From Caldisericia bacterium (GTDB taxonomy: Bacteria > Caldisericota > Caldisericia > UBA6126): a stretch of 64,000 bases of DNA. Made by a program: the position numbers and the translations under genes. A model generated the notes under the pieces. The model did no database searches, had not been told where the DNA came from, and worked only from the letters and a program-made list of their open reading frames with translations. Positions 1 to 26,789 of the stretch are shown here, in pieces. The stretch is from contig JAXGOZ010000005.1 in the NCBI GenBank assembly GCA_040767255.1, positions 26,045 to 90,044 on the forward strand. Reading direction: 5' to 3'. Each line of letters begins with the position of its first letter. Positions within the stretch are counted from its first letter, which is position 1.

Positions 1-614
1 ATCTGCTCTTGAAGTTCTTTTTTGAGAGATTCAAGATCAAGTTCATCCAGGAGAATTTGAATTGCTTCAGCACCTTTCCCAGCTTCGAATCGATGACCCT
101 CTTCAATAGCTTTATGATATTCTTCGTCACGGATAACTTGGTATTTTTTGAAATCTGTATCACCAGGATCAATAATGATGTACTTAACAAAGTAAACAAC
201 TTCTTGTAGTGATTTTGAAGTCATATTCAAAAGCAACGATACAAAGGGAACGGTCTTCAAGTACCAAATGTGGATAATGGGAGCAGCTAAAGAAATATGC
301 CCCATTCTCTCTCGGCGAACAGTCGATCGAGTAACTTCAACGCCACAACGATCACAAATGACGCCTTCATATCTTTTTCCTTTGTACTTACCGCATCGGC
401 ACTCATAATCTTTAAATGGTCCAAATATTTTTTCACAAAACAATCCATCTGGTTCTGGTTTGAAGTTACGATAACTAATGGTTTCAGATTTCCTTACTTC
501 ACCAAAACTCCAGCTCAGAATTTCATCTGCACTAGCTAGATGGATAGATATCGCTTCGTAATCCGTAACGGACGGTTTTTTTATTGTTTTGTCTCGTGTT
601 TGCTGTTTATCCAA
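1..614 (-). CDS. rpoC: DNA-directed RNA polymerase subunit beta' (5' part; runs off window start; missing from the ORF track)
   Basis: Manual translation from TTG at 614 (SD AAGGGGG): ...[74 protein letters not shown]...[19 protein letters not shown], the beta' zinc-finger region; open to base 1. Confidence 0.97.
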
Positions 615-650
615 AACGAGAACCCCCTTTGCATATGCTTATATTCTTGC

Positions 651-2719
651 TCAAGAAGCTTCGTCTTCTTTCGCTTCTTCAATCACTTTTTGTGCAGTTT
701 TTGGTGGTGCTTCTTCATAATGTGAGAATTCCATTTCATAAAAACCTCTAGCACCCGAAACAGATTTAATGGTTGTGATGTAAGTTCCTAATTCTCCAAG
801 TGGTGCTTGAGCTTCAATAATCTGCCACCCTTTTTGATCTCCAACTTTCATACTCATAATACGCCCTCTGCGCGTATTTAAGTCATCAATCACAGAACCC
901 ATTGATTCCTCGGGTACATGAACTTTTAGATTCATGATAGGTTCTAACAATATTGACTCTCCTTGGTCTAATGCTTTTTTTAGTGCAATAGAACCAGCCA
1001 TCTTAAATGCTTGTTCGGAAGAATCAACAGGATGATAGGATCCATCATAAACAGTTACTTTCAAGTCAACAACGGGATATCCTGCTAAAATGCCATGCTG
1101 CATTGCTTCAAGGACACCTTTTTCAACAGCAGGAACATAGGTTTTTGGGATTGCACCCCCGAAAATTTTGTTTTCGAACTCAAAGTGCTCTCCTCTACTA
1201 GCCGGCTGTACTTCTAGCCAGCAATGACCGAACTGCCCATGACCACCCGATTGTTTTTTGTGTTTTCCTTCTACTTTTACAGGTTTTCGGATGGTTTCTT
1301 TGTAGGCAATCTTGGGTTGTTCCAGCAAGAGAGAAACACCAAATTTTCGTTTGGCCTTTTCCATGGTTACTTGCAGGTGGGTGTCCCCCATTCCGCGTAT
1401 AATGGTTTCACCAGTATCTTGATCTCTTTCAATAATAATACTGACGTCATCTTCTTGGATTTTGGGAAGAACTGCTCCGAGTTTGTCTTCGTCTGATTTT
1501 TTATCAGCTTTAATGGACATACGAGCATTTGGAATAGGAAGCTTTATCCATGGAATAGTAAGTACTTGATCTTGCTGAGAAAGAGTATGGCCAGTCTTGG
1601 TTAATGTAAGTTTTGTTATTGCGCCAATGTCCCCTGCAGGAATATGATCAATCGTAATATCTTTTTTACCTATGAAGGTTGCAATTTGACCTATCTTATC
1701 GCTTTTTTCCTCTGTAGTATTGTAAATTTTGGAATCTGAATTTAAGTCTCCAGAAAAGACTTTCACTAAAGAAATTCTTCCGACGTATGGATCTGTCATT
1801 GTTTTAAAAACGAGTGCAGCCAAAGGTCCACTTTTGTCTACTGAAAGCTGAACTTCACTACCATCTTCTTTTACTGCTACAATGCCTTCTCTTTCTTCAG
1901 GACTTGGCATATACGTGGCCATAAAGTCAAGTACATGATCTGTTCCTTTTGAATCTGCAGCTGCAGTAAAGAGGATGGGGAAAACTTTTCGTTGTAAAAA
2001 AGCCTTTTTAAGCATTGAAGAAACTCATCATGTGAGATTTCTTCTCCACCCAGATATTTTTCTACAAGAGCATCATCCACTTCGATAACAGATTCTAAAA
2101 GTGCATCGTAACTGTCTTCTACAATAGATTGAAGATCTTGAGGGAGTTCTTCTTTTTTCCCATCAAGCGTATAATAAGTTTTGTGAATAATGTCTGCTAA
2201 ACCTTGAAGAACGTTTCCCTTGATGTAGGGGTAAAAAATTGGATGACATTTTTCAGAATATTGCTGTTGGATTGCTTGCAGCATATCAGGGATATTCACA
2301 TTTTCTCGGTCAATTTTATTTACAACAAAAGCTGTGGGTAACTTATGTTCTTCTGCATAGTAAAATGTCTTTTCAGTTCCTGCTTGAAGACCGGAAATAA
2401 CATCTATGACAATAAGTGCTCCATCAGCTGCAATCATTGCAGATTTTACTTCACCTACGAAATCAAAGTAGCCTGGAGAATCAAGAAGATTGATTTTTAA
2501 ACCATTGTACTCGATGGGAATAAGGGATAAACTAACGGATATTTGACGTTTTGTTTCCTCTGGTTCAAAATCTGAAACAGTATTTCCATCCTGAATTTTG
2601 CCTAATCGGTCAGTAATCTTAGTTTTAAAGGCAATTGCTTCCGTTATTGAAGTTTTTCCAACTCCTCCATGACCGGCTAGCACAACATTACGGATGTTTT
2701 TTGCTTCATACAGCTTCAT
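651..2719 (-). CDS. fusA: Elongation factor G, EF-G2 (non-canonical) type; one frameshift near 2015
   Basis: ORFs 1877..2719 and 651..2015 join to about 690 aa. G1 GHGGVGKT, G2 region KRQIS, DSPG, NKID, domain [13 protein letters not shown] and [10 protein letters not shown]. One extra A at CTT CAA ^ATG CTT restores the frame. Confidence 0.92.
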
Positions 2720-5700
2720 TCATGATCCTCCTTGGTTGTATCGTTAAAATTATCAGAAACAGTACTATTAGACTCACTCATCATATCTTCGAATTCTTCA
2801 CTTAAACTATCATCTTCACTGATAAACTTTTCAAAATCGGAATCAAGAGTTTCAGTAGAATCGGGACTTAAAGGATCCTCTAGTGGAGACCTTGAAGAAT
2901 CATTATCGTAAGTTGAGTCCTCAACAACTTCCATTTTAATACCGAGTCCTTTAAGTTCATTGATGATAACATTGAAAGATTCAGGATTGCTGCTTGGTTG
3001 GATTAAGTGTCGGTTACATATGGCTTCATATGCTCTGACTCTGCCTTCGGTATCGTCAGATTTGATAGTCAGCATTTCGTTTAGCGTATAGGCCGCACCA
3101 TATGCTTCCAGAGCCCAAACTTCCATTTCTCCGAATCTTTGTCCACCAAATTGAGCTTTACCTCCCAGTGGTTGCTGGGTAATCAGTGCATAAGGTCCTA
3201 TGGAACGAGCATGGATTTTATCTTCAACCATATGATTCAGTTTCATAATGTAGGAATATCCCACTGTAACAGGTTTATCAAAAGATTCGCCTGAATAACC
3301 ATCATATAAAACTCGTTTACCGTGTTTTGAAGATTCGTCTTCTTCTAATTTTTCAACTAATTCAGCAGGAGTCATTCCAGCAAAGGGAGTAGTTACACAA
3401 TAAGAGTGTGAATTATTGGCAATCCCAGTAAACACTCCAGTATCTGAATCTACATTCATTCGAGATGGTACACCTAGAGGGTTCAGGACAATATCAACAG
3501 GAGTTCCATCATCAAGATATGGCATATCTTCAACGGGAAAATCTTTTGAGATAACACCCTTGTTTCCGTGTCTTCCAGAGAGTTTATCGCCAATCTGTAT
3601 CTTTCTTTTCTCTCCAATAAACACTTTCCTAAATTCTATTTACTCCAATTGGAAGATTTTCTTCATCTTCTCTGGATAATACTTGAACATCGATAACGGT
3701 TTCTCTGTCTCCGGTGGTACTGAGGGAGGAGTCTTTTACATCCTGTCCCTTTTTGTCAAACATTGCTCTCCAAGCCATTTCAGGAGTAAACTCTTTCTGC
3801 TTTAGGAGTAATCTTTCCTACTAAAATATCATTAGCCAACTTCTGTTCCTACTGAATAATACCTTCTTCATCTAAATTGCGCAGTTGCTCCTCAGGAACA
3901 TTTGGGATATCTCTAGTAATCTCTTGAGGTCCTACTTTTGTATCCCGAACTTGAACTTTATGTTCTTTGATATGAATAGAAGTTAGAGTGTCTTGTTCTA
4001 CTAATCTTTGACTAATAACGATGGCGTCCTGGTAGTTATAACCTCTCCAGGGAAGATAAGCTGTTAGAAGATTCTGACCCAATGCTAATCTTCCTCTATC
4101 GCAACCTTCTCCATTAATGATTGTGGTTTTTTGTGTTAGAATATCTCCTTGTGTCACTAAGGGATATTTATTTACTACGGTATCCTGGTTTGTTCTTCTA
4201 AATTTTGTAATGGGTACTTTTGTGGACTTAAAGATGTCAATCACTTCTACGTTGTGTTTCACAAGATCTATAATCAATGGAAAGTCTACGGTATCCCCTT
4301 TGTGTGCGGCTACTTTACCACCAATGTAAACATCTTTTGCAAGAATTACGGTCTTTTTAAGTTTTGGATTGAGAATGAAGGTTTGAGCAAACTTTAACTC
4401 TTCTATTGAGACAAGTGTTATTTTTCTAACGTTGTGTTCTTTTAACTTTGTGAAAGTATTTGGGGAGATCTGCTTGCCATATTCAATGTCAGGACAATAT
4501 GGATCAGAATACACAAGAATTCGTTCAACAGGAATGTTATCCTTATGGACATACTTGACTTCAAAAACAGGGACTTTTTCAACTCCACCGGTCCATCCTA
4601 CAACATCGACTTCGGGGATTTTAGCTCCGATGAGTCGATCCATCAGTCCTTTTGTAATCTCTCGGCCGGCGTTAATAAGCACTTTATTTGTTTTGGTATA
4701 TACATCGCTTACAAGTTTTCTGCCAATCAAGGCTTCGTTTTTTTCATACAAAACCAGTTCAGCCAAATCAATGGTTTCAAAAACATCTGAATCTGTATAT
4801 GCAATCGATAAATTTTGGTTATAGAAAAGCTTATGGAGAATGTTACCATCGATAGTTTGTCCTACTTCGCCAATATCGGGTACAGTTTCTGCTAATACTT
4901 TTTCAATAAGAGATGTATTGAATTTACCAATTTGAACTTGTTCGTGGCCATTATCAGGAGAGGTTATATAGATAGATGTAGAATCGACATATGAAACAAT
5001 ACCCTCTTGAGGAGAAAGCTCAGATGCTCCAGAATCGATGGCTGCTTTTTCTTCTAATCCAGTACCAGAATAAGGAATTTCAGGATGAATGAGAGGAACT
5101 GCTTGGTGTTGCATATTACAGCCCATTAATGCACGGTTTGCATCGTCATGCTCTAAAAATGCAATAAGGCCAGCAGACACAGAAAAAACTTGTAATGGAG
5201 AAATATCAATGAGATTCACTTTTTCTTTGGGTACAGTAAGATATTCTTCGTAATATCTACAAAGAACTTGATCTGATGTAATATTGCCATGTTCATCAAC
5301 AGGGGTATCAAATTGTGCGATATATCGGTCATCTTCATCATCAGCAGTCAAAGTTACAACTCTATCGGTCACTTTTCCATTCTCTACTACCTTGTATGTT
5401 GCAACAATGAAACCTCTATCGTCTATTTTTGAGTATACTGACAATGAGTTGATAAGGCCAACGTTTTCACCTTCAGGTGTTTCGATGGGACAAATTCTTC
5501 CATAATGAGAATAGTGAACGTCTCGAACTTCCGCACCTGCACGCTCGCGGTGAAGTCCACCAGGCCCTAGAGCTGAAATTCGGCGCTTATGGGTTAGGGA
5601 TGCTATTGGATTGGTTTCATCCATAAATTGAGACAGCTGACCCATGCTGAAGAACTCTTTGATGGAAGCCTCAAGGGGTCTTGGATTAATGATGCTTGAA

Positions 5701-6974
5701 GTATGTTTATGGATCTCTTCCCAGGGGGTAACGGATATTTTCTCATACGTGTTTTTCATTACCCGATGCAAGCCAACTCGCATATTGTTCTTTAATAATT
5801 CCCCAACAAGACGAAGTCGTTTGTTGCCCAAATGATCCCTATTGTCTGTTTGGCCAGTATTGTGCTCGATTTTAGCAAAGTACTGAATTAGTTTTAGTAA
5901 GTCATCCTGGGTAACAGTACGATCTAAAACGTCTAAACCTAATTTTTTGTTCATTTTATAGCGGCCAACTTCACCTAAATCATTTCTGCGAGGATCTGTC
6001 AGCACTTGTTTAAACTGGATGTCAGCATTTTCTTTTGTATATCGTTCACCGGGTCTTAGTTTTAAAAAGATCAGTTTCTTTGCAGACTCTTCATCGGTGG
6101 TATTGTCTTCTTCCAATGTAGCAATGGCAAAACGTGACAAAGCGCGGTCATAAATATGAATTCGGCTAATTCTCGTTTTGGCGATTTCTTCCAAAATTCC
6201 AAAAGTTAATGTTGTTCCCTTCTTATAAAGATCTTCTCCGGTTGTTAGGTCATAGATATCATCGTACAATTTTTTTCCAACTGCATCAAAGTACTCTTTT
6301 GAGTTTACTCGAAGTTCAACAACAGTCTCATCTTTCAAAGCTTCTCGTAAGTCTTCGTCAGTTAAGCCCATAGCACGTAAGACTACGGTAGCTGGAAGTT
6401 TTTTACTTCTTTTGTCGAGGTAAACGAAAACAACACCGTTTTCATTGGTTTCAAATTCGATCCAAGAACCTCGATCTGGGATAATGGTAGCTTTGTATAA
6501 AGGTTCTCCCGTTTTCAACGAAGGACTTTGTTCAAAATATACACCTGGTGATCGAGTTAACTGTCCAACAACCACTCTTTCGACACCGTTAATAATAAAA
6601 GATCCTGTGGGCGTCATATATGGAAATTCCCCAACAGCAATTCGTTTGTTTTTATCCTGTAAATGGATTTCTTCACCAAGCTCTGTGTTGGTGAGACGTA
6701 TAGATAGGTTTAATTCCCCGTTGTATGTTTTTCCTTTAATTTTACACTCATCAGGTGTTGCTTTTGGTTTCGTTATTTCATATCCTAGAAAACGAACCAG
6801 TACCTTCCCACTCTCATACGTTGTGTCAGTTTCTTCGAATTCGTCTAATAGTTCTTGGATGCCCTTGTCGAGTAACCAATCAAAAGATTTCCTTTGCATA
6901 TCAAGAAGATCAGGTGCCTGAAAGTCTTGTTTTATTTTGTTCAAATCTCTCAACACAAATGATTGATGTGACAC
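2716..6974 (-). CDS. rpoB: DNA-directed RNA polymerase subunit beta (indel-garbled at about 3400-3850)
   Basis: [22 protein letters not shown]...[53 protein letters not shown]. The gap at 3625-3849 still encodes [10 protein letters not shown] and TVIDVQ in shifting frames. Confidence 0.97.
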
Positions 6975-7071
6975 AATAAACTCCTTATTACCATGTGAAA
7001 TAAATCACAAGGCTATAAATAACCATAGAAACCCTGCAATCCACAAAAAAAAATCAATTTAACAAACATTC

Positions 7072-7100
7072 ATTATATAATATAATGTGTCAAAAAGCAA
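7072..7100 (-). promoter_or_regulatory. Putative sigma70-type promoter of the rpoB-fusA-rpoC operon
   Basis: Minus strand TTGCTT (7100-7095), 17-nt spacer, TATAAT (7077-7072), about 100 nt upstream of the rpoB start. Confidence 0.45.
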
Positions 7101-7121
7101 AAAAATGATTCGAGGCAAAAA

Positions 7122-7481
7122 ATGATTTCATGTGGAATCGATGTTGTGAAAATTGACCGTATTGAAAAAATGTGCAATCAGTATCAATCCGATTGGTGGA
7201 TTCACTATATCGGTACAGAACAGGAATGGGAGTATTCCCAACGAAAAAAAAATTTTGCTGAATCATTAGCGGGTTTTTTTGCAGCAAAAGAAGCCTACAT
7301 AAAAGCAGTAAGCTGCCAAATAAAAAAACCTGCCCTTCGAGATATCGAAATACTTCATTCACCCGAGGGCAGGCCTTATATTCTTTCAAATCGTAGTGAT
7401 TTACGTTCAAATCAACTACAAGTCAGCATATCGCACGAAAAGGAATATGCGATTGCAATAGTTATGTTTCAGTGGGATTAG
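7122..7481 (+). CDS. acpS: Holo-[acyl-carrier-protein] synthase
   Basis: GIDVVKIDRI, FAAKEAYIKA, GRP, VSISHEKEYAIA; 119 aa. Confidence 0.93.
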   Translation: MISCGIDVVKIDRIEKMCNQYQSDWWIHYIGTEQEWEYSQRKKNFAESLAGFFAAKEAYIKAVSCQIKKPALRDIEILHSPEGRPYILSNRSDLRSNQLQVSISHEKEYAIAIVMFQWD

Positions 7482-8881
7482 TCGAATAATTGTCGAATCC
7501 GCCAATCTTCATTCATCATTAAGTGATTGATGTCCAATAGATCAATTCTTCTATCGTCATTGAAATCACCTTGTTTTAGGAAACCTTTATCACCCCGTAG
7601 AGTACCGAAAGATTTCCCTAAAAAGATAACGTCACTATCATCGACACTTCCATTATTATCAAGATCATAGATGTTTGGGACTACTTGCACTCCGCTAAAG
7701 AAAGACAGATCGATAAGTTCAAAAGGAACTATATTGTTGTCGGGATCAGAAGCAGAGAATTGAACAATCTTGAAAACAACACCACCTTCACCAGTATCCT
7801 TTTTGAAGTTTACAAGCAAATCAAAAAGATCTCCGGATCCAGAAAAAGGCCTATCGAATGTAACGACAATCTCTCCTTTTCTTTGATGAAACTCAATTGT
7901 GGCATTGTTCTTGATTGAATCGGGAAGTTTTGCAGCTTCGATAGTGTAGTAATCGTTGGCAGCCCAGAGTCGTACAACAAGTCTCTTTAAATTGCGAGTG
8001 TTGTTGACCTTGTAGGTCATGGTATCAAGAGATGTATGCTTCTGCTGGAGTCCCATCTGGGGCACATTCCAGTAAAACAAAGCAGGGTTTTCGTTTGAAA
8101 ATTTGTATAGTGCAGAGCCAACGATTTCTTTTGTTTCTTGATCTTGAAGAAAAACTACAACTCCACATTGAACAGCAGCTTTTGTAGTTAGAACAAACTT
8201 TCTATCTTCTTCATAGATCTGATCAGCTTTAAGACGAACCGGTTTACCGGAAACACCGTAGGGCATAGTCCGAACAACATGACGATTTAAGTATTCACCA
8301 TTCTTCTGTTCAGTTATGACCCAATCCTGATATATTGCTGCAATCATATTAATGTTTCGTTTCCCAAAGTCTTCTCGGGCTTTAATTTTTAAACTGAAAG
8401 AATGGGCATCAAAATCAGCTGTTAATTGGATATCCGCAACGTCTCTTCTTGCATTATCAGCTTCAAGAATTGCTTCCACATATTGATCGAAATCAATATA
8501 TTGTCCATCATTAGGAACACCAACAATCAAGTCTATTCACAACAACTACGGAGGAAATGAATTAACAGTGTAGTATTCGCAACGCTTTTTCGGTATCAGC
8601 GGATGCTAGTGAATCACGGTAGTGATAAGAAAGCGGAACGAAAACATCTTCCGTTTGATTAAGTACTAAGTCGCAATAATCCATACCAGCGGAAGCATAG
8701 GGACAAACTCCGCACCATCCACCTGTAAACCGTTCTACAATGACAGGAGATGGAGACGGTGTAAAATCAGTACCGTTTGCAGCATAAGCTTGTATGGTGC
8801 TTGGTAATGAGAGAATAGAAGAAGGAAGATAAACACTCCTGAAAAGCTAACTGTAAAAAGCTTCTTAAAATTCAATCTCAT
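7478..8881 (-). CDS. Secreted Omp28-like thioredoxin-fold protein with cohesin-like domain and C-terminal dockerin (frameshifted at the 5' end)
   Basis: ATG at 8881 after SD GAGGAGG, signal peptide, then an alternative frame VIVERFTGGWCGVCPYA...LSYHYRD. ORF 7478..8530 has NRHVVR and VVVFLQD (Omp28-like) and a paired Ca-binding repeat DLDNNGSVDDSD...DFNDDRRIDLLD. Confidence 0.72.
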
Positions 8882-22456: not shown

Positions 22457-23695
22457 CTAGGGTTTCATCGACCTCATTTGGTTCTGAATTGCATTCATTC
22501 GCTTTTTCACAACTTCTTGAGCTTTTTTCAACATTTCGCTTTTATCAGGGCAAGGTGTTTCCATAAAGGGACCCTTTTGAACTGATTTCTCAAAATTCCA
22601 AAAAGTATCTTTGTTTTCCCCAATTTCTTGCTGATTTGGTGGGAATGCATCAATAGCATGTTCTGTCCCCTCTTCAGAAGAAAGAATGGAGTAGTTGATA
22701 ATCTGATAATTACCCTTTCGATCGATAAACGATATGATTTTGATTAAACAGCCTACTGAAACATTTGTATCCATCATCAATACATGAGAAAAGTGATGTG
22801 GAATATGCAATACAATACGCCTACCATCTTTAGAACCTAGTACCAATGTGTCGTCACTTAGTGAAATCAAATACCCGGTAAAAGAGATGGGTCGATCAGG
22901 TCGCAATGGTTTGATCTCAAGAAAAAGCAGTTCGTAGCGATATTCGGAATAATTGTACATAATCTTTGCTGCAATAGGACTGCCGATCTGGATTTTCTCA
23001 AACAATGATAAATCTCCAACAACAAAAATTGGATAAGGGAATTGCTCAACAAAAATACTATGATTATCAAAATCAATTTGGCGAATTCGTCCTTGCAATG
23101 CAAAACCTTCTCTCGGTATTGATCGATAGGAAGCTTGAAAGTCTCGCAAGAATTGAATGCATTGTTGGGGTGTAATCTTTGTGTGACGGGCTATAACTCC
23201 CCATTCCAAACGGTTTTTTCTCATTCGTATCAAATCGTTTACAGGGATGTTTGCTTCTTTAGAAACCAAAAGCAGAAATACAGCATCGAAAGGCTGAACG
23301 TTGTATATGTAACGAGTTTCGAGAAACTCCACTGGATCAATCCCATACTTTTGCTCAAGTAACGAAGAAAGCATATATGGTGCAATCGTTTGATCATGAA
23401 CCATAGTGTTGGATTGGTTTTTAAAGTCGTGGAGACTACGGTTCAGTTTGTAACTATTGTATACATCAATTAACGATCCTTTTTCACTACCAAATACAGG
23501 AAAAAGGGAAGTTACAGAAATAACTAGAGCGAGTGCAATAGGCACTGCTATTCGACGACTTAATGAAAAAGTTCTTTTTTTCTTTTTTTGAGATTCCACA
23601 TTCCTCATGACAGAAAGGAACATTGTATCATCAATTGAATGAGTAGGTGTAATAGATTCTAAGAATTCTTGGATGACCTTTTTATCTTGATCCAT
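22457..23695 (-). CDS. Putative membrane-anchored anti-sigma factor
   Basis: Overlaps the ECF sigma stop by 1 nt; short cytoplasmic N-terminus, single TM (IAVPIALALVISV), large external part with RMRKNRLEWGVIA. Confidence 0.62.
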   Translation of the reverse strand: MDQDKKVIQEFLESITPTHSIDDTMFLSVMRNVESQKKKKRTFSLSRRIAVPIALALVISVTSLFPVFGSEKGSLIDVYNSYKLNRSLHDFKNQSNTMVHDQTIAPYMLSSLLEQKYGIDPVEFLETRYIYNVQPFDAVFLLLVSKEANIPVNDLIRMRKNRLEWGVIARHTKITPQQCIQFLRDFQASYRSIPREGFALQGRIRQIDFDNHSIFVEQFPYPIFVVGDLSLFEKIQIGSPIAAKIMYNYSEYRYELLFLEIKPLRPDRPISFTGYLISLSDDTLVLGSKDGRRIVLHIPHHFSHVLMMDTNVSVGCLIKIISFIDRKGNYQIINYSILSSEEGTEHAIDAFPPNQQEIGENKDTFWNFEKSVQKGPFMETPCPDKSEMLKKAQEVVKKRMNAIQNQMRSMKP

Positions 23696-24225
23696 TAGAC
23701 ATCTTCCTTTGTTTCAATAATTTGCTTCAGTTTTTTTGTTGCTCGATGAATCCGAACTTTTGTGTTTGTAACAGTAATTTTCAATGTTTTTGCAATTTCT
23801 TCTACGGTTAACTCCTGAAAATAGCGCATCATAATGATTTCACGATCCTTTGGGCTTAATTCTTTCATATACTGCTGAATTTGGTGAGTTTTTTCTTTTG
23901 TTTCGTGCTGCGGAGAAGGGATATTGTCAAGCACAAAGTCTTGGTTTGTGTAAACTCGTCGGTTCTTTTTAATATGTGTCCTTGTTTCATTGAGAATAAT
24001 TCTAGATAACCAAGGATGGAAAGAACGTTCCATATCAAAAGATATAAAATTTGTGAACACTTTAATAAATACGTTTTCAACGATATCATCTGCTTCATCT
24101 TGATTTTTTAACATGTAGTATGCAGATCGAAAAACATAGTCTTTGTAATACTTAAAAACTTCAGCCTGAGCCATTCTATCACCATCTTTAGCAAGTTGTA
24201 GTATTTCCCTGTCGATTTCAGTCAC
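23695..24225 (-). CDS. ECF-family RNA polymerase sigma factor
   Basis: DEADDIVENVFIKV, SFHPWLSRI, region 4 LSPKDREIIMMRYFQELTVEEIAKTL...KVRIHRA; 176 aa. Confidence 0.92.
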   Translation of the reverse strand: MTEIDREILQLAKDGDRMAQAEVFKYYKDYVFRSAYYMLKNQDEADDIVENVFIKVFTNFISFDMERSFHPWLSRIILNETRTHIKKNRRVYTNQDFVLDNIPSPQHETKEKTHQIQQYMKELSPKDREIIMMRYFQELTVEEIAKTLKITVTNTKVRIHRATKKLKQIIETKEDV

Positions 24226-24246
24226 GTTTAACCATCTTTCTATATG

Positions 24247-24275
24247 TATTACAAATTAACACGAGTTTTGTTACA
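24247..24275 (-). promoter_or_regulatory. Possible autoregulatory ECF-type promoter
   Basis: Minus strand TGTAAC-N16-TGTAATA just upstream of the ECF gene; resembles the AAC...CGT ECF consensus with one mismatch. Confidence 0.28.
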
Positions 24276-24306
24276 CTACTTTTACTATTTTTTGAAAGGA
24301 AGTACA

Positions 24307-25542
24307 ATGAACCGATTCCTAGCAAACAGTATAGAGAAAATTGTATCAAATGAAGGAAAAAAATTTCTTGATATGACCCAAGGCTATGACGCATCCTTAT
24401 TGCTATACCAAGAAGCTCAAAACCCTTCACTTTATGTACATATTCCATTTTGTCAGAAGATTTGTCCTTATTGTTCCTTCAATCGTTATCCATATCAGGA
24501 AGAATTAGCCACCCATTACTTTAAAGCTTTGGAACAAGAACTACTCTATTACAAAAACAAAGGTTTTCATTTCCATGAAGTATATTTTGGTGGAGGAACC
24601 CCAACAATCAATATTCCTCTGCTCAGAAATTTTATAAAAGCTCTTCATACCCATTTTTCGATACAAGAAATCTCAATTGAGGCAAATCCAATTGATTTAA
24701 CCGAAGAGACTATTCGAGAGTTGCAACATATCGGCATCAATAGATTGTCTATCGGAGTACAAAGCTTTAAAAATGAGCTACTAGTCGACATGGGACGTCG
24801 TTCGCACACATCAGAAGAAGCTATTCGCGCTATTGAAAGAGTAGGTAATCGATTCAACACTGTCAACATTGACTTCATTTTCAACTTTCCAAACCAGAAG
24901 CTTGAGGACTTTTACAATGATATTCAAACCATGAAAAAAATCGGTGTAAATCAAGCTACATTTTACCCATTGATGCCTTCTCCACATAAACAAAGTGCCT
25001 TGGAAAGAAAATTTCACACCATTGACACAAATAGAGAATTTTCTTTTTACCGAATGCTCCAAAATGAAATGAAAAGAGAATTTCAACCGTCAACTTGTTG
25101 GTGTTTCTCTAAGGGAGACCAAAGAATTGATGAATACATTATTCACCATCCAGAATATGTGGGTTTGGGTGCGGGTTCTGTAGGTTTTCTGCAAAACACT
25201 TTTTTTGTGAATACCTTCCACCCAAAGAAATACATCCAGCAGATACAACAACACAAGGTTTCAATTGTCATGCATAAACAAGCTACAAAAAAAGAAGCAG
25301 CACGCTACTTTATGCTTACACAACTCTTTGGCATGCAATTGGATGGAAAAGAACTTACAAAACGGTATCAAAATGCTGTACTTCCTGAACTTCTTTTGCT
25401 ACAGGCCAATTCCATCATTAAAAAAAGAGGAGATCATTATGTAACAACCACAAAGGGCATGTACTACATTGGTCTCATGATGAAGCATTTTTTTATTGGG
25501 TTAAACGGTTTACGAGAAATCTGTATCCAAAATCAGTTGTAA
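24307..25542 (+). CDS. HemN-like class C radical SAM enzyme, most similar to menaquinone methyltransferase MenK/MqnK
   Basis: LYVHIPFCQKICPYCSF, GGGTPT, RLSIGVQSF, QATFYPLM, DEYI...EYVGLGAGS; no HemW HNxxYW motif. Confidence 0.8.
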   Translation: MNRFLANSIEKIVSNEGKKFLDMTQGYDASLLLYQEAQNPSLYVHIPFCQKICPYCSFNRYPYQEELATHYFKALEQELLYYKNKGFHFHEVYFGGGTPTINIPLLRNFIKALHTHFSIQEISIEANPIDLTEETIRELQHIGINRLSIGVQSFKNELLVDMGRRSHTSEEAIRAIERVGNRFNTVNIDFIFNFPNQKLEDFYNDIQTMKKIGVNQATFYPLMPSPHKQSALERKFHTIDTNREFSFYRMLQNEMKREFQPSTCWCFSKGDQRIDEYIIHHPEYVGLGAGSVGFLQNTFFVNTFHPKKYIQQIQQHKVSIVMHKQATKKEAARYFMLTQLFGMQLDGKELTKRYQNAVLPELLLLQANSIIKKRGDHYVTTTKGMYYIGLMMKHFFIGLNGLREICIQNQL

Positions 25543-25614
25543 AAGTAGCAATTCTACATTGCCAAAACATAATGATTCAGTAGAATTAAAGAATACTTTA
25601 CCGTAGGGGGTAGT

Positions 25615-26232
25615 TTGATGAAAAAAATCATCTCTATTGTTGTTATGCTATTTATGGTTCTTGGTCTTAGTTTTTCTATGACCAGCTGTACTGATAATTC
25701 CTCTGACAATGGTGGTCAAGTTATCAGTGACGGGGGCAGCGGAGGTGGTATAATATCACCAGAAGAAGCCCGAGATGCTGGTGATTGGACATTACCAATC
25801 GTTGCTAATCCAAATCCTGAATTAGGAATTGAAGCAGAAGTTAAACTGCAAGAATTGATCGATAATCCTGATGTCAAACTAATTTTAGTTGATTTTTGGG
25901 CCACTTGGTGTGAACCTTGCAAAGAAGAAATGCCCTATCTAGAAGAAATATACCAAGAATACAAAGATCAAGGTTTGGAATGTTTAGTTATCACCATTGA
26001 TTCTAGCAAAGCCCTTGAGAAACAAATCCTGAAAGATGTGGAGCACTTAGCTGTTACATATCCTATTCCTTGGGATTTAGATTCTGCAGTCAAAAACTCA
26101 TATGGAATTCAAGCCATTCCTGTAACATATCTCATCGACAAAAATGGCAAAATTCGCTATGAGCACTCTGGATTCACAATGGCACTCATGGACCATTTAT
26201 GGGAAGCAGTTGAGGAATTAATCAACGAGTAA
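25615..26232 (+). CDS. TlpA/ResA-family thiol-disulfide oxidoreductase lipoprotein
   Basis: Lipobox-like MTSC; DFWATWCEPCKEEMP; IPVTYLIDKNG. Confidence 0.9.
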   Translation: MMKKIISIVVMLFMVLGLSFSMTSCTDNSSDNGGQVISDGGSGGGIISPEEARDAGDWTLPIVANPNPELGIEAEVKLQELIDNPDVKLILVDFWATWCEPCKEEMPYLEEIYQEYKDQGLECLVITIDSSKALEKQILKDVEHLAVTYPIPWDLDSAVKNSYGIQAIPVTYLIDKNGKIRYEHSGFTMALMDHLWEAVEELINE

Positions 26233-26789
26233 TGAAGATTATTTCAGGAAAAAGGCGCGGGAAAACACTTGTTTCTCCCGCGCATCTTCCTTTACGACCA
26301 ACCTCAAATAAAGTTCGCGAAGCTCTATTCAATATACTTCGACTAGAGATTCCGGGCTGTTTTTTTTTAGATTTATTTGCAGGAACAGGGGCAATTGGAA
26401 TCAATGCTCTTAGTGAAGGAGCAAAAAAAGCAGTATTTGTTGAAAAAAATGCCACTTGTGCCAGAACCATCCTGAAAAATTTAACCAATGCTGATTTTAC
26501 AAGTGACTCTTATCTGCTGTTTCGCGAAACAGCAGAATATTTTCTTACTCACCGAAAAATTGATCAATTTCAGTTTATTTTTCTAGATCCTCCCTATAAT
26601 TATTCTACAGACCAATATCTATTTCTTCTGCAGAAAATTGAAAAAAAAATGAATCCGCAATGTATTATTATTCTGGAACATATAAAAAAAAGCGAGATTC
26701 AAGCCATTTCCAAAGTGCTTGAGTTAGATTGCGAGGAACGAACGTATGGAAGAACCAAGCTGTCCATCCTTGGAAAAATGCAACAATAA
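26232..26789 (+). CDS. rsmD: 16S rRNA m2G966 methyltransferase
   Basis: MKIISGKRRG, RPTSNKVREALFN, LDLFAGTGAIG, FLDPPY. Confidence 0.93.
   Translation: MKIISGKRRGKTLVSPAHLPLRPTSNKVREALFNILRLEIPGCFFLDLFAGTGAIGINALSEGAKKAVFVEKNATCARTILKNLTNADFTSDSYLLFRETAEYFLTHRKIDQFQFIFLDPPYNYSTDQYLFLLQKIEKKMNPQCIIILEHIKKSEIQAISKVLELDCEERTYGRTKLSILGKMQQ

Follow-up and report, generated by a model that had tools for sequence, protein, structure and literature searches.

An EFG II-type elongation factor G paralogue between rpoB and rpoC throughout the class Caldisericia

Introduction

The EFG II subfamily of elongation factor G (EF-G) paralogues was described by Margus, Remm and Tenson in 2011 (PMC3150367), and it corresponds to the EFGII of Atkinson 2015 (PMC4342817). 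In this study we consider an EFG II-type gene that lies between rpoB and rpoC, which encode the beta and beta' subunits of RNA polymerase (RNAP), in a 64,000-nt stretch of a Caldisericia bacterium genome (GCA_040767255.1, contig JAXGOZ010000005.1; C26:26045-90044 of the source assembly). This whole stretch is hereafter called the window, and positions are those of the window unless a contig or locus is named. The source assembly comprises 1.70 Mb in 30 contigs and is rated 78.3% complete; the GC content around the locus is 36-41%.

According to passages of PMC3150367, the EFG II proteins have lost RGITI in G2 and carry Ser for Thr at the fourth position, with r/kxxSI and RxxSI given as the G2 variants of Chloroflexi and Clostridia. 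For the P-loop, a part of PMC4342817 gives Gly for Ala 16(19), a hydrophobic residue for Thr 25(28) and Gly for the cation-binding Asp. Thermus thermophilus EF-G-2 (PDB 1wdt) is a solved EFG II example. The protein studied here resembles the subfamily in several respects: it accompanies the canonical fusA of a str operon as a second EF-G and is itself encoded outside that operon, its G2 lacks RGITI but has Ser, its P-loop lacks the Asp while the G1, G3 and G4 cores are kept, and its domain IV is conserved while the G domain is divergent. The difference lies in the context, which the passages of PMC3150367 give only as "not in the str operon", whereas here it is fixed between rpoB and rpoC. The main text of that paper does not mention rpoB or rpoC, and the literature searched contained no description of an EF-G gene between these two genes, though such contexts may be listed in the supplementary files to Margus 2011, Atkinson 2015 and Brandis 2021.

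Other described systems are less close. The stress-linked EF-G2 proteins of mycobacteria and Bacteroides are likewise EF-G paralogues with a divergent GTPase centre, and the EF-G2 of Bacteroides is reportedly a stress-linked paralogue. The mycobacterial EF-G2 is presented, in part of a preprint, as a stress-specific factor without recycling activity (bioRxiv 10.64898/2026.05.25.727771). The present protein differs from them in that it fails the models NF009377 and NF058620, and its operon position would predict expression linked to growth, not to stress. The model NF009381 (PRK12740.1-5, "elongation factor G" subfamily) matches it over the full length, with a name that is silent on function or context. 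As for gene order, in the passages of the published account of the conserved transcription-translation cluster small insertions occur between operons or between rplL and rsmC, with none between rpoB and rpoC; the cluster downstream of rpoC is intact here. The rpoB-paralogue-rpoC operon form is a lineage-specific variant; the protein family is already known.

Gene Order in Caldisericota

On the minus strand of the window rpoB is followed by the EFG II-type paralogue and rpoC, and past the window edge by rpsL (TIGR00981), rpsG (TIGR01029), the canonical fusA, tuf and rpsJ. The rpsL-rpsG-fusA-tuf genes occupy 8685..4525 of locus L002; a normal str operon with its own EF-G is present about 5 kb downstream. 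The open reading frames (ORFs) and their NCBIfam matches bear out what an initial annotation, made from the letters of the window alone, had described: the order rpoB, EF-G, rpoC, the shared bases (ATGA) of the rpoB stop and the paralogue start, the 36-nt spacing between EF-G and rpoC, the motifs GHGGVGKT and KRQIS, and a divergent acpS instead of rplJL upstream of rpoB. The canonical fusA that it had suggested looking for is the one just downstream of rpoC.

The same order was found in all 30 sampled relatives from six families, where the paralogue lies between the rpoB C-terminus and the rpoC N-terminus (29 with both flanks, one at a contig end). To extend this, rpoB C-terminal and rpoC N-terminal matches were paired in 93 genomes of the phylum, the gaps being those between match ends and not between annotated gene ends; 14 of the 93 were left unscored, with matches on different contigs or missing. 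In the class Caldisericia (families f1-f6) the rpoB-rpoC gap is 2.1-2.65 kb in 71 of the 71 genomes with both matches on one contig. An EFG2-type match falls inside the gap in 69 of these, and in the other two (G077 and G031) it appears as two split matches. The sister class (family f7) has a gap of 68-245 nt in 8/8 scorable genomes, and in the outside control, with one genome for each of 46 families of other phyla, it is 1-494 nt in 46/46 (no match was obtained in two more genomes). Conservation among the relatives contradicts the chance insertion that the initial annotation had allowed for. Adjacency of rpoB and rpoC is among the most conserved bacterial gene pairs (46/46 in other phyla, 8/8 in the sister class), and because it is so conserved elsewhere, its interruption by a translation-factor paralogue in a whole class represents a clean synapomorphy. 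It also means that, over long periods, an internal gene can be accommodated in the rpoBC unit.

The f7 orthologue of the paralogue has 43-48% identity and, among the matches listed, is on a contig other than that of rpoB in 7/7 cases. In two f7 genomes it adjoins a DtxR/FeoA-type repressor gene (by feoB in one of them), and the other neighbours differ between them, with HPPK and methyltransferase genes in one genome and GNAT acetyltransferase and VWA/SLH-domain genes in the other.

The link between rplL and rpoB is broken in the window's genome, where rplL (C26:94840-95040) is about 62 kb upstream of rpoB, and in G043, where the distance is about 40 kb. In G016 the two are close neighbours, with an rplL match within about 2.7 kb of the 3' match of rpoB and an rpoB frame of 1145 aa. 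In stability the rpoB-paralogue-rpoC block exceeds the link of rplL to rpoB.

Several observations were made alongside this survey. In G031 (C28:4076-6300) the embedded paralogue is in two open frames (406 + 380 aa), a frameshift that is either an assembly error or a real break. In four genomes of other phyla (G137, G139, G135 and G124) the rpoB and rpoC matches are spanned by open frames of 2534-2906 aa, of which one contains a TAA; this suggests fused rpoBC genes in some of the sampled lineages. The locus L033 (DAIMET010000030.1) is titled "Calditrichota bacterium"; its paralogue is 99-100% identical to those of the window's genus, whose other records are titled Caldisericota or Caldisericia, so the title is probably a taxonomic mislabel.

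Family Identity, Motifs and Phylogeny of the Paralogue

NF009381 is the best NCBIfam model for both EF-G ORF pieces of the window. An intact orthologue (99% identity over the C-terminal 453 residues) matches it at full length with 847 bits (cut-off 583) and stays below the cut-off of the canonical EF-G model TIGR00484 (598.9 vs 659.4), as well as below those of NF009377 (EF-G-like protein EF-G2; 605.2 vs 890) and NF058620 (Bacteroidota EF-G2; 534.1 vs 1000). The genome's own fusA reaches 999 bits with TIGR00484, and it also passes the broad NF009381, at 793 bits. Judged by these scores and by the EFG II motifs, the gene is an EF-G2/EFG II-type paralogue, as initially annotated, and its protein falls into an already known family. 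The usual five EF-G domains, with no extra one, make up the Pfam architecture that was precomputed for a near-identical protein.

Motifs were compared in an alignment of 29 class copies, 3 f7 copies, 19 other-phylum proteins and 6 fusA. Beside its G1 motif GHGGVGKT the window's paralogue has KRQIS / RQISV in G2. All 29 class copies and all 3 f7 copies lack the P-loop Asp, have Ser in G2 and carry another residue in place of the catalytic His; the His of DxPGH is Tyr, Phe or Ala in all 29 class copies (Tyr, Phe, Leu or Ala when f7 is included). The P-loop Asp is replaced in the class by Gly (22 copies), Asn (5) or Ser (2), the first P-loop residue is Gly in 12/29 copies, including that of the window, and Ser or Ala in the rest, and position 25(28) is I, L, F or W. 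Among the other-phylum copies, Asp and His are gone in 19/19, and G2 Ser is present in 17/19, Thr being kept in two. The fusA proteins are canonical in 6/6 (AHIDAGKT, RGITI, DTPGH). The domain IV loops HKKQ[ST]GGHGQ[FY]G and SYHxVDSS are nearly invariant. Since the dispersed f7 and other-phylum orthologues share the motifs, these are not special to the embedded copy, and on the aligned residues the odd GTPase motifs are family traits. Within the genus, dN/dS is 0.022-0.055 in 10 pairs, with dS saturated in most of them.

The paralogues of family f3 (L023, L027, L028 and L029) stand out with GQG[GS]SGKT in G1, SRMD for NKxD in G4 and a long branch (0.84), and their guanine-nucleotide specificity may be altered or lost.

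A quick IQ-TREE search was made on 60 rows. All Caldisericota EFG2, embedded and dispersed, form one clade (SH-aLRT 97), followed outward by Dehalococcoidia/Chloroflexota proteins and then by Bacillota (names as in the source, where they are called "elongation factor G"). The proteins of these two groups show the G2 variants r/kxxSI and RxxSI published for Chloroflexi and Clostridia. In this phylogeny, of the kind that the initial annotation had proposed, fusA is set apart with support 100. Given a single EFG2 clade, and outgroups in which rpoB and rpoC are contiguous, the most parsimonious history is that a vertically inherited gene moved once, long ago, in the stem of the class Caldisericia; the paralogue would then be neither a duplicate of the local fusA nor a foreign gene.

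Operon Packing and Proposed Co-transcription

The distance from the rpoB stop to the inferred start of the paralogue is -26 to +26 nt in 29/29 scorable loci, with a stop/start overlap in 22 of the 29, including all 8 of the window's genus. From the paralogue stop to the first candidate rpoC start in or after the spacer there are 6-51 nt in 28 loci; none was found in L032. A scan of positions 1-7600 gave no minus-strand terminator-like or promoter-like site between the genes; over the scanned region promoter-like sites numbered 12 (21.2 expected) and terminator-like sites 5 (4.8 expected), which lends no support to internal signals. The same-strand genes are too closely spaced to hold a promoter or terminator between them.

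Contigs of two DNA runs (X1 and X3) and two metatranscriptome runs (X2 and X4), from three studies, were compared with positions 1-7200. Among the DNA contigs, X1 record 1 bridges both junctions and X3 record 22 bridges that of rpoB and the paralogue. Among the contigs of the RNA libraries, X4 record 29 (2680-2915) bridges rpoB and the paralogue, and X2 record 9 (1-926, a close variant) bridges the paralogue and rpoC. The bridging contigs and the tight spacing fit co-transcription, and putative translational coupling between rpoB and the paralogue is plausible.

Interpretation of the Arrangement

In our judgement the paralogue is quite probably an internal rpoBC operon gene, whose product would be an EFG II factor directed to the ribosome and synthesised in step with the RNAP core and with the ribosomal operons downstream. 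An EFG II-type paralogue would have existed as a dispersed gene already in the ancestor of the phylum Caldisericota, and a single relocation in the stem of the class Caldisericia would have brought it into the rpoB-rpoC spacer, where it would have been kept since as an internal rpoBC operon gene, directly upstream of the str and S10 operons. Its transcription would most likely proceed together with rpoB and rpoC from a promoter upstream of rpoB, and its translation would begin from its own Shine-Dalgarno sequence in the 3' end of rpoB, possibly coupled to rpoB termination, with the product made in step with RNAP core and ribosomal genes. The protein, whose GTPase centre is altered in the way typical of EFG II, would act as a ribosome-binding translocase-like factor beside the canonical EF-G. 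Its position would probably be locked, because any breakpoint there would split rpoBC, so that a rearrangement would break the unit, and the gene itself is under strong purifying selection.

If this is the case, the paralogue should be expressed in Caldisericia with the core transcription and translation genes and not as a stress gene, and a cultured member of the class exists. The arrangement offers a testable clue to EFG II, a subfamily whose role is given as unknown in a part of PMC4342817.

Several points weigh against this interpretation. The start codons of the relatives were picked by their nearness to the alignment start, and contigs of RNA libraries may contain DNA and are no proof of a single transcript. 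The other-phylum sample is one genome per family from 46 families, f7 is sister to the class only at SH-aLRT 83 in a quick search, and the tree was built without a labelled EFG II reference sequence. Against this protein the EFG II structure 1wdt scores 445 bits vs 530 bits for Thermus EF-G, and the biochemical role of EFG II is described as unsettled in a section of PMC4342817. Finally, what was selected for in the unbroken class-wide retention could be something more specific than joint expression.

In an alternative view the paralogue has acquired a role tied to RNAP, for which its position was selected, for example coupling of the lead ribosome to RNAP, translation of the long rpoB/rpoC message, or assembly of beta and beta'. 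We regard it as improbable, even though the class-wide fixation (71/71 genomes) and the tight packing with its stop/start overlap speak for it, and some room for it remains because the block is so stable, the rplL-rpoB link being broken in the window's genome and in G043. Nothing in the protein itself suggests such a role. It has the usual five EF-G domains with none added, its decoding-centre loops are conserved, and the same motifs occur in dispersed f7 and other-phylum orthologues. Nor does the large insertion in rpoB co-occur with the arrangement, as family f4 has the latter but an rpoB of only about 1145 aa. It is on the same grounds (domains, loops and shared motifs) that the boldest part of the initial annotation, an undescribed system or a role in transcription-translation coupling or RNAP assembly, is not supported, while its EF-G2 type, the str-operon fusA, the packing into the rpoBC unit and the conservation of the order all stand. 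In one version of this idea, fixation and overlap would mark a working partnership, in which the paralogue would be produced at a constant ratio to the RNAP core and would act at the transcription-translation interface, for instance on the trailing ribosome or on the rpoB/rpoC message. Such a partnership seems to us a long shot; if true, it would give EFG II a defined job in this lineage.

Concerning the length of rpoB, the frames of f1, f2, f3, f5 and f6 have about 1380-1440 aa, those of f4 about 1143-1145 aa and those of several f7 genomes 1175-1200 aa. The extra stretch in the rpoB of the window (about 4200-5150, minus strand) has no Pfam match and appears to be a lineage-specific insertion.

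Frame Breaks in the Assembly

In this assembly rpoB, the EF-G paralogue and rpoC are all frame-broken, which the initial annotation did not report. The rpoB gene has an in-frame TAG (3851-3849) and several shifts between 3421 and 3854, the paralogue has a single shift at about 2004-2010, where one base is missing in an A-run, and beyond the window rpoC is in at least five pieces. Compared with its nearest relative (91.6% identity over 12.8 kb), the window's genome shows 44 gap openings, nearly all of them 1-2 nt deletions in the window's genome, with clusters in rpoC and in rpoB 3421-3854 and one at 2010. An alternative genetic code (table 4, TGA = W) was considered, and it neither explains the broken frames nor joins the pieces.

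Taken at face value, these breaks and the clustering of the gap openings in rpoB and rpoC could mean that the locus is decaying, with real frameshift mutations in all three genes. This is very unlikely. Both rpoB and rpoC are essential, and only one rpoB copy was found in the window's genome. Near-identical contigs from the four runs described above carry frame-restoring indels at 2004 and 3448-3853 wherever they cover these positions: the extra base after 2004 is present in all four runs, and in the rpoB cluster the runs with coverage have indels at 3448, 3629, 3712, 3721, 3722, 3771, 3775, 3792, 3834 and 3853. By arithmetic on the ORFs and the alignment, the net indels of +1 in the paralogue and +13 in rpoB mend the frames, and the relatives have intact ones, with about 1143-1440 aa in rpoB and 689-702 aa in the paralogue (689 aa in the nearest relatives). 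The source sample may itself be among the DNA runs, in which case that run is no independent support. Because the contigs of four public runs carry frame-restoring indels, we read the frame breaks in rpoB, the paralogue and rpoC as assembly errors; for genome curation this means that those in this metagenome-assembled genome (MAG) are errors and not biology.

The indel clusters fall in conserved parts of rpoC and rpoB, at C26 about 22800-26650 (L002 8790-11110) and at 3421-3854 of the window. The same alignment is free of indels in the 3' part of fusA, in rpsG and rpsL, in the C-terminal part of the paralogue and in the first 1041 codons of rpoB. Such clustering resembles local errors of the consensus, at places where reads from related populations are mixed.

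It could be asked whether the gene order itself is an artefact, from a chimeric contig or a misjoin in a MAG that is 78% complete and has local errors, but this is refuted by the same order in 30/30 relatives, single-contig genomes among them, and by the independent contigs that bridge both junctions, which also settles the misassembly that the initial annotation wished to see checked. A recent local duplication of the fusA 5 kb downstream, which the presence of both EF-G homologues in one gene cluster might suggest, is refuted by an identity of only 31-37% and by the tree, which splits off fusA (100) and joins the paralogue to f7 and to EFG II-like Chloroflexota/Bacillota proteins.

Coordinates and Neighbouring Genes

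The features of the locus are collected in Table 1. The two rpoB pieces match TIGR02013 with 1.7e-266 and 3.4e-111.

Table 1. Features at the rpoB-paralogue-rpoC locus (window positions).
Feature	Position	Strand	Details
rpoC 5' part (beta')	3..614	-	ORF, TIGR02386 4e-79; candidate TTG start 614-612; runs off the window into C26 below 26045
EF-G paralogue/rpoC spacer, 36 nt	615..650	-	GGGGG Shine-Dalgarno-like run 627-623, 8 nt before TTG
EFG II-type EF-G paralogue	651..2719	-	ATG 2719-2717, TGA 653-651; ORF pieces 1877..2719 + 651..2015
AAGGAGG Shine-Dalgarno of the paralogue	2727..2733	-	within the last rpoB codons, 7 nt before ATG
rpoB (beta)	2716..6974	-	GTG start 6974, TGA 2718-2716 (ATGA overlap with the paralogue, 2716-2719); ORF pieces 3849..6974 + 2716..3624
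acpS (holo-ACP synthase)	7122..7481	+	divergent, upstream of rpoB; TIGR00516 1.2e-20

Nearly the whole window separates rpoB from the rplKAJL region. Like rplL, a second tuf-like match (C26:98907-99287) is about 62 kb upstream of rpoB. On the minus strand at 7478-8530 there is a 350-aa ORF without an NCBIfam or Pfam match, and its C-terminus contains two Asp/Asn-rich stretches which, by eye, look dockerin-like or calcium-binding.

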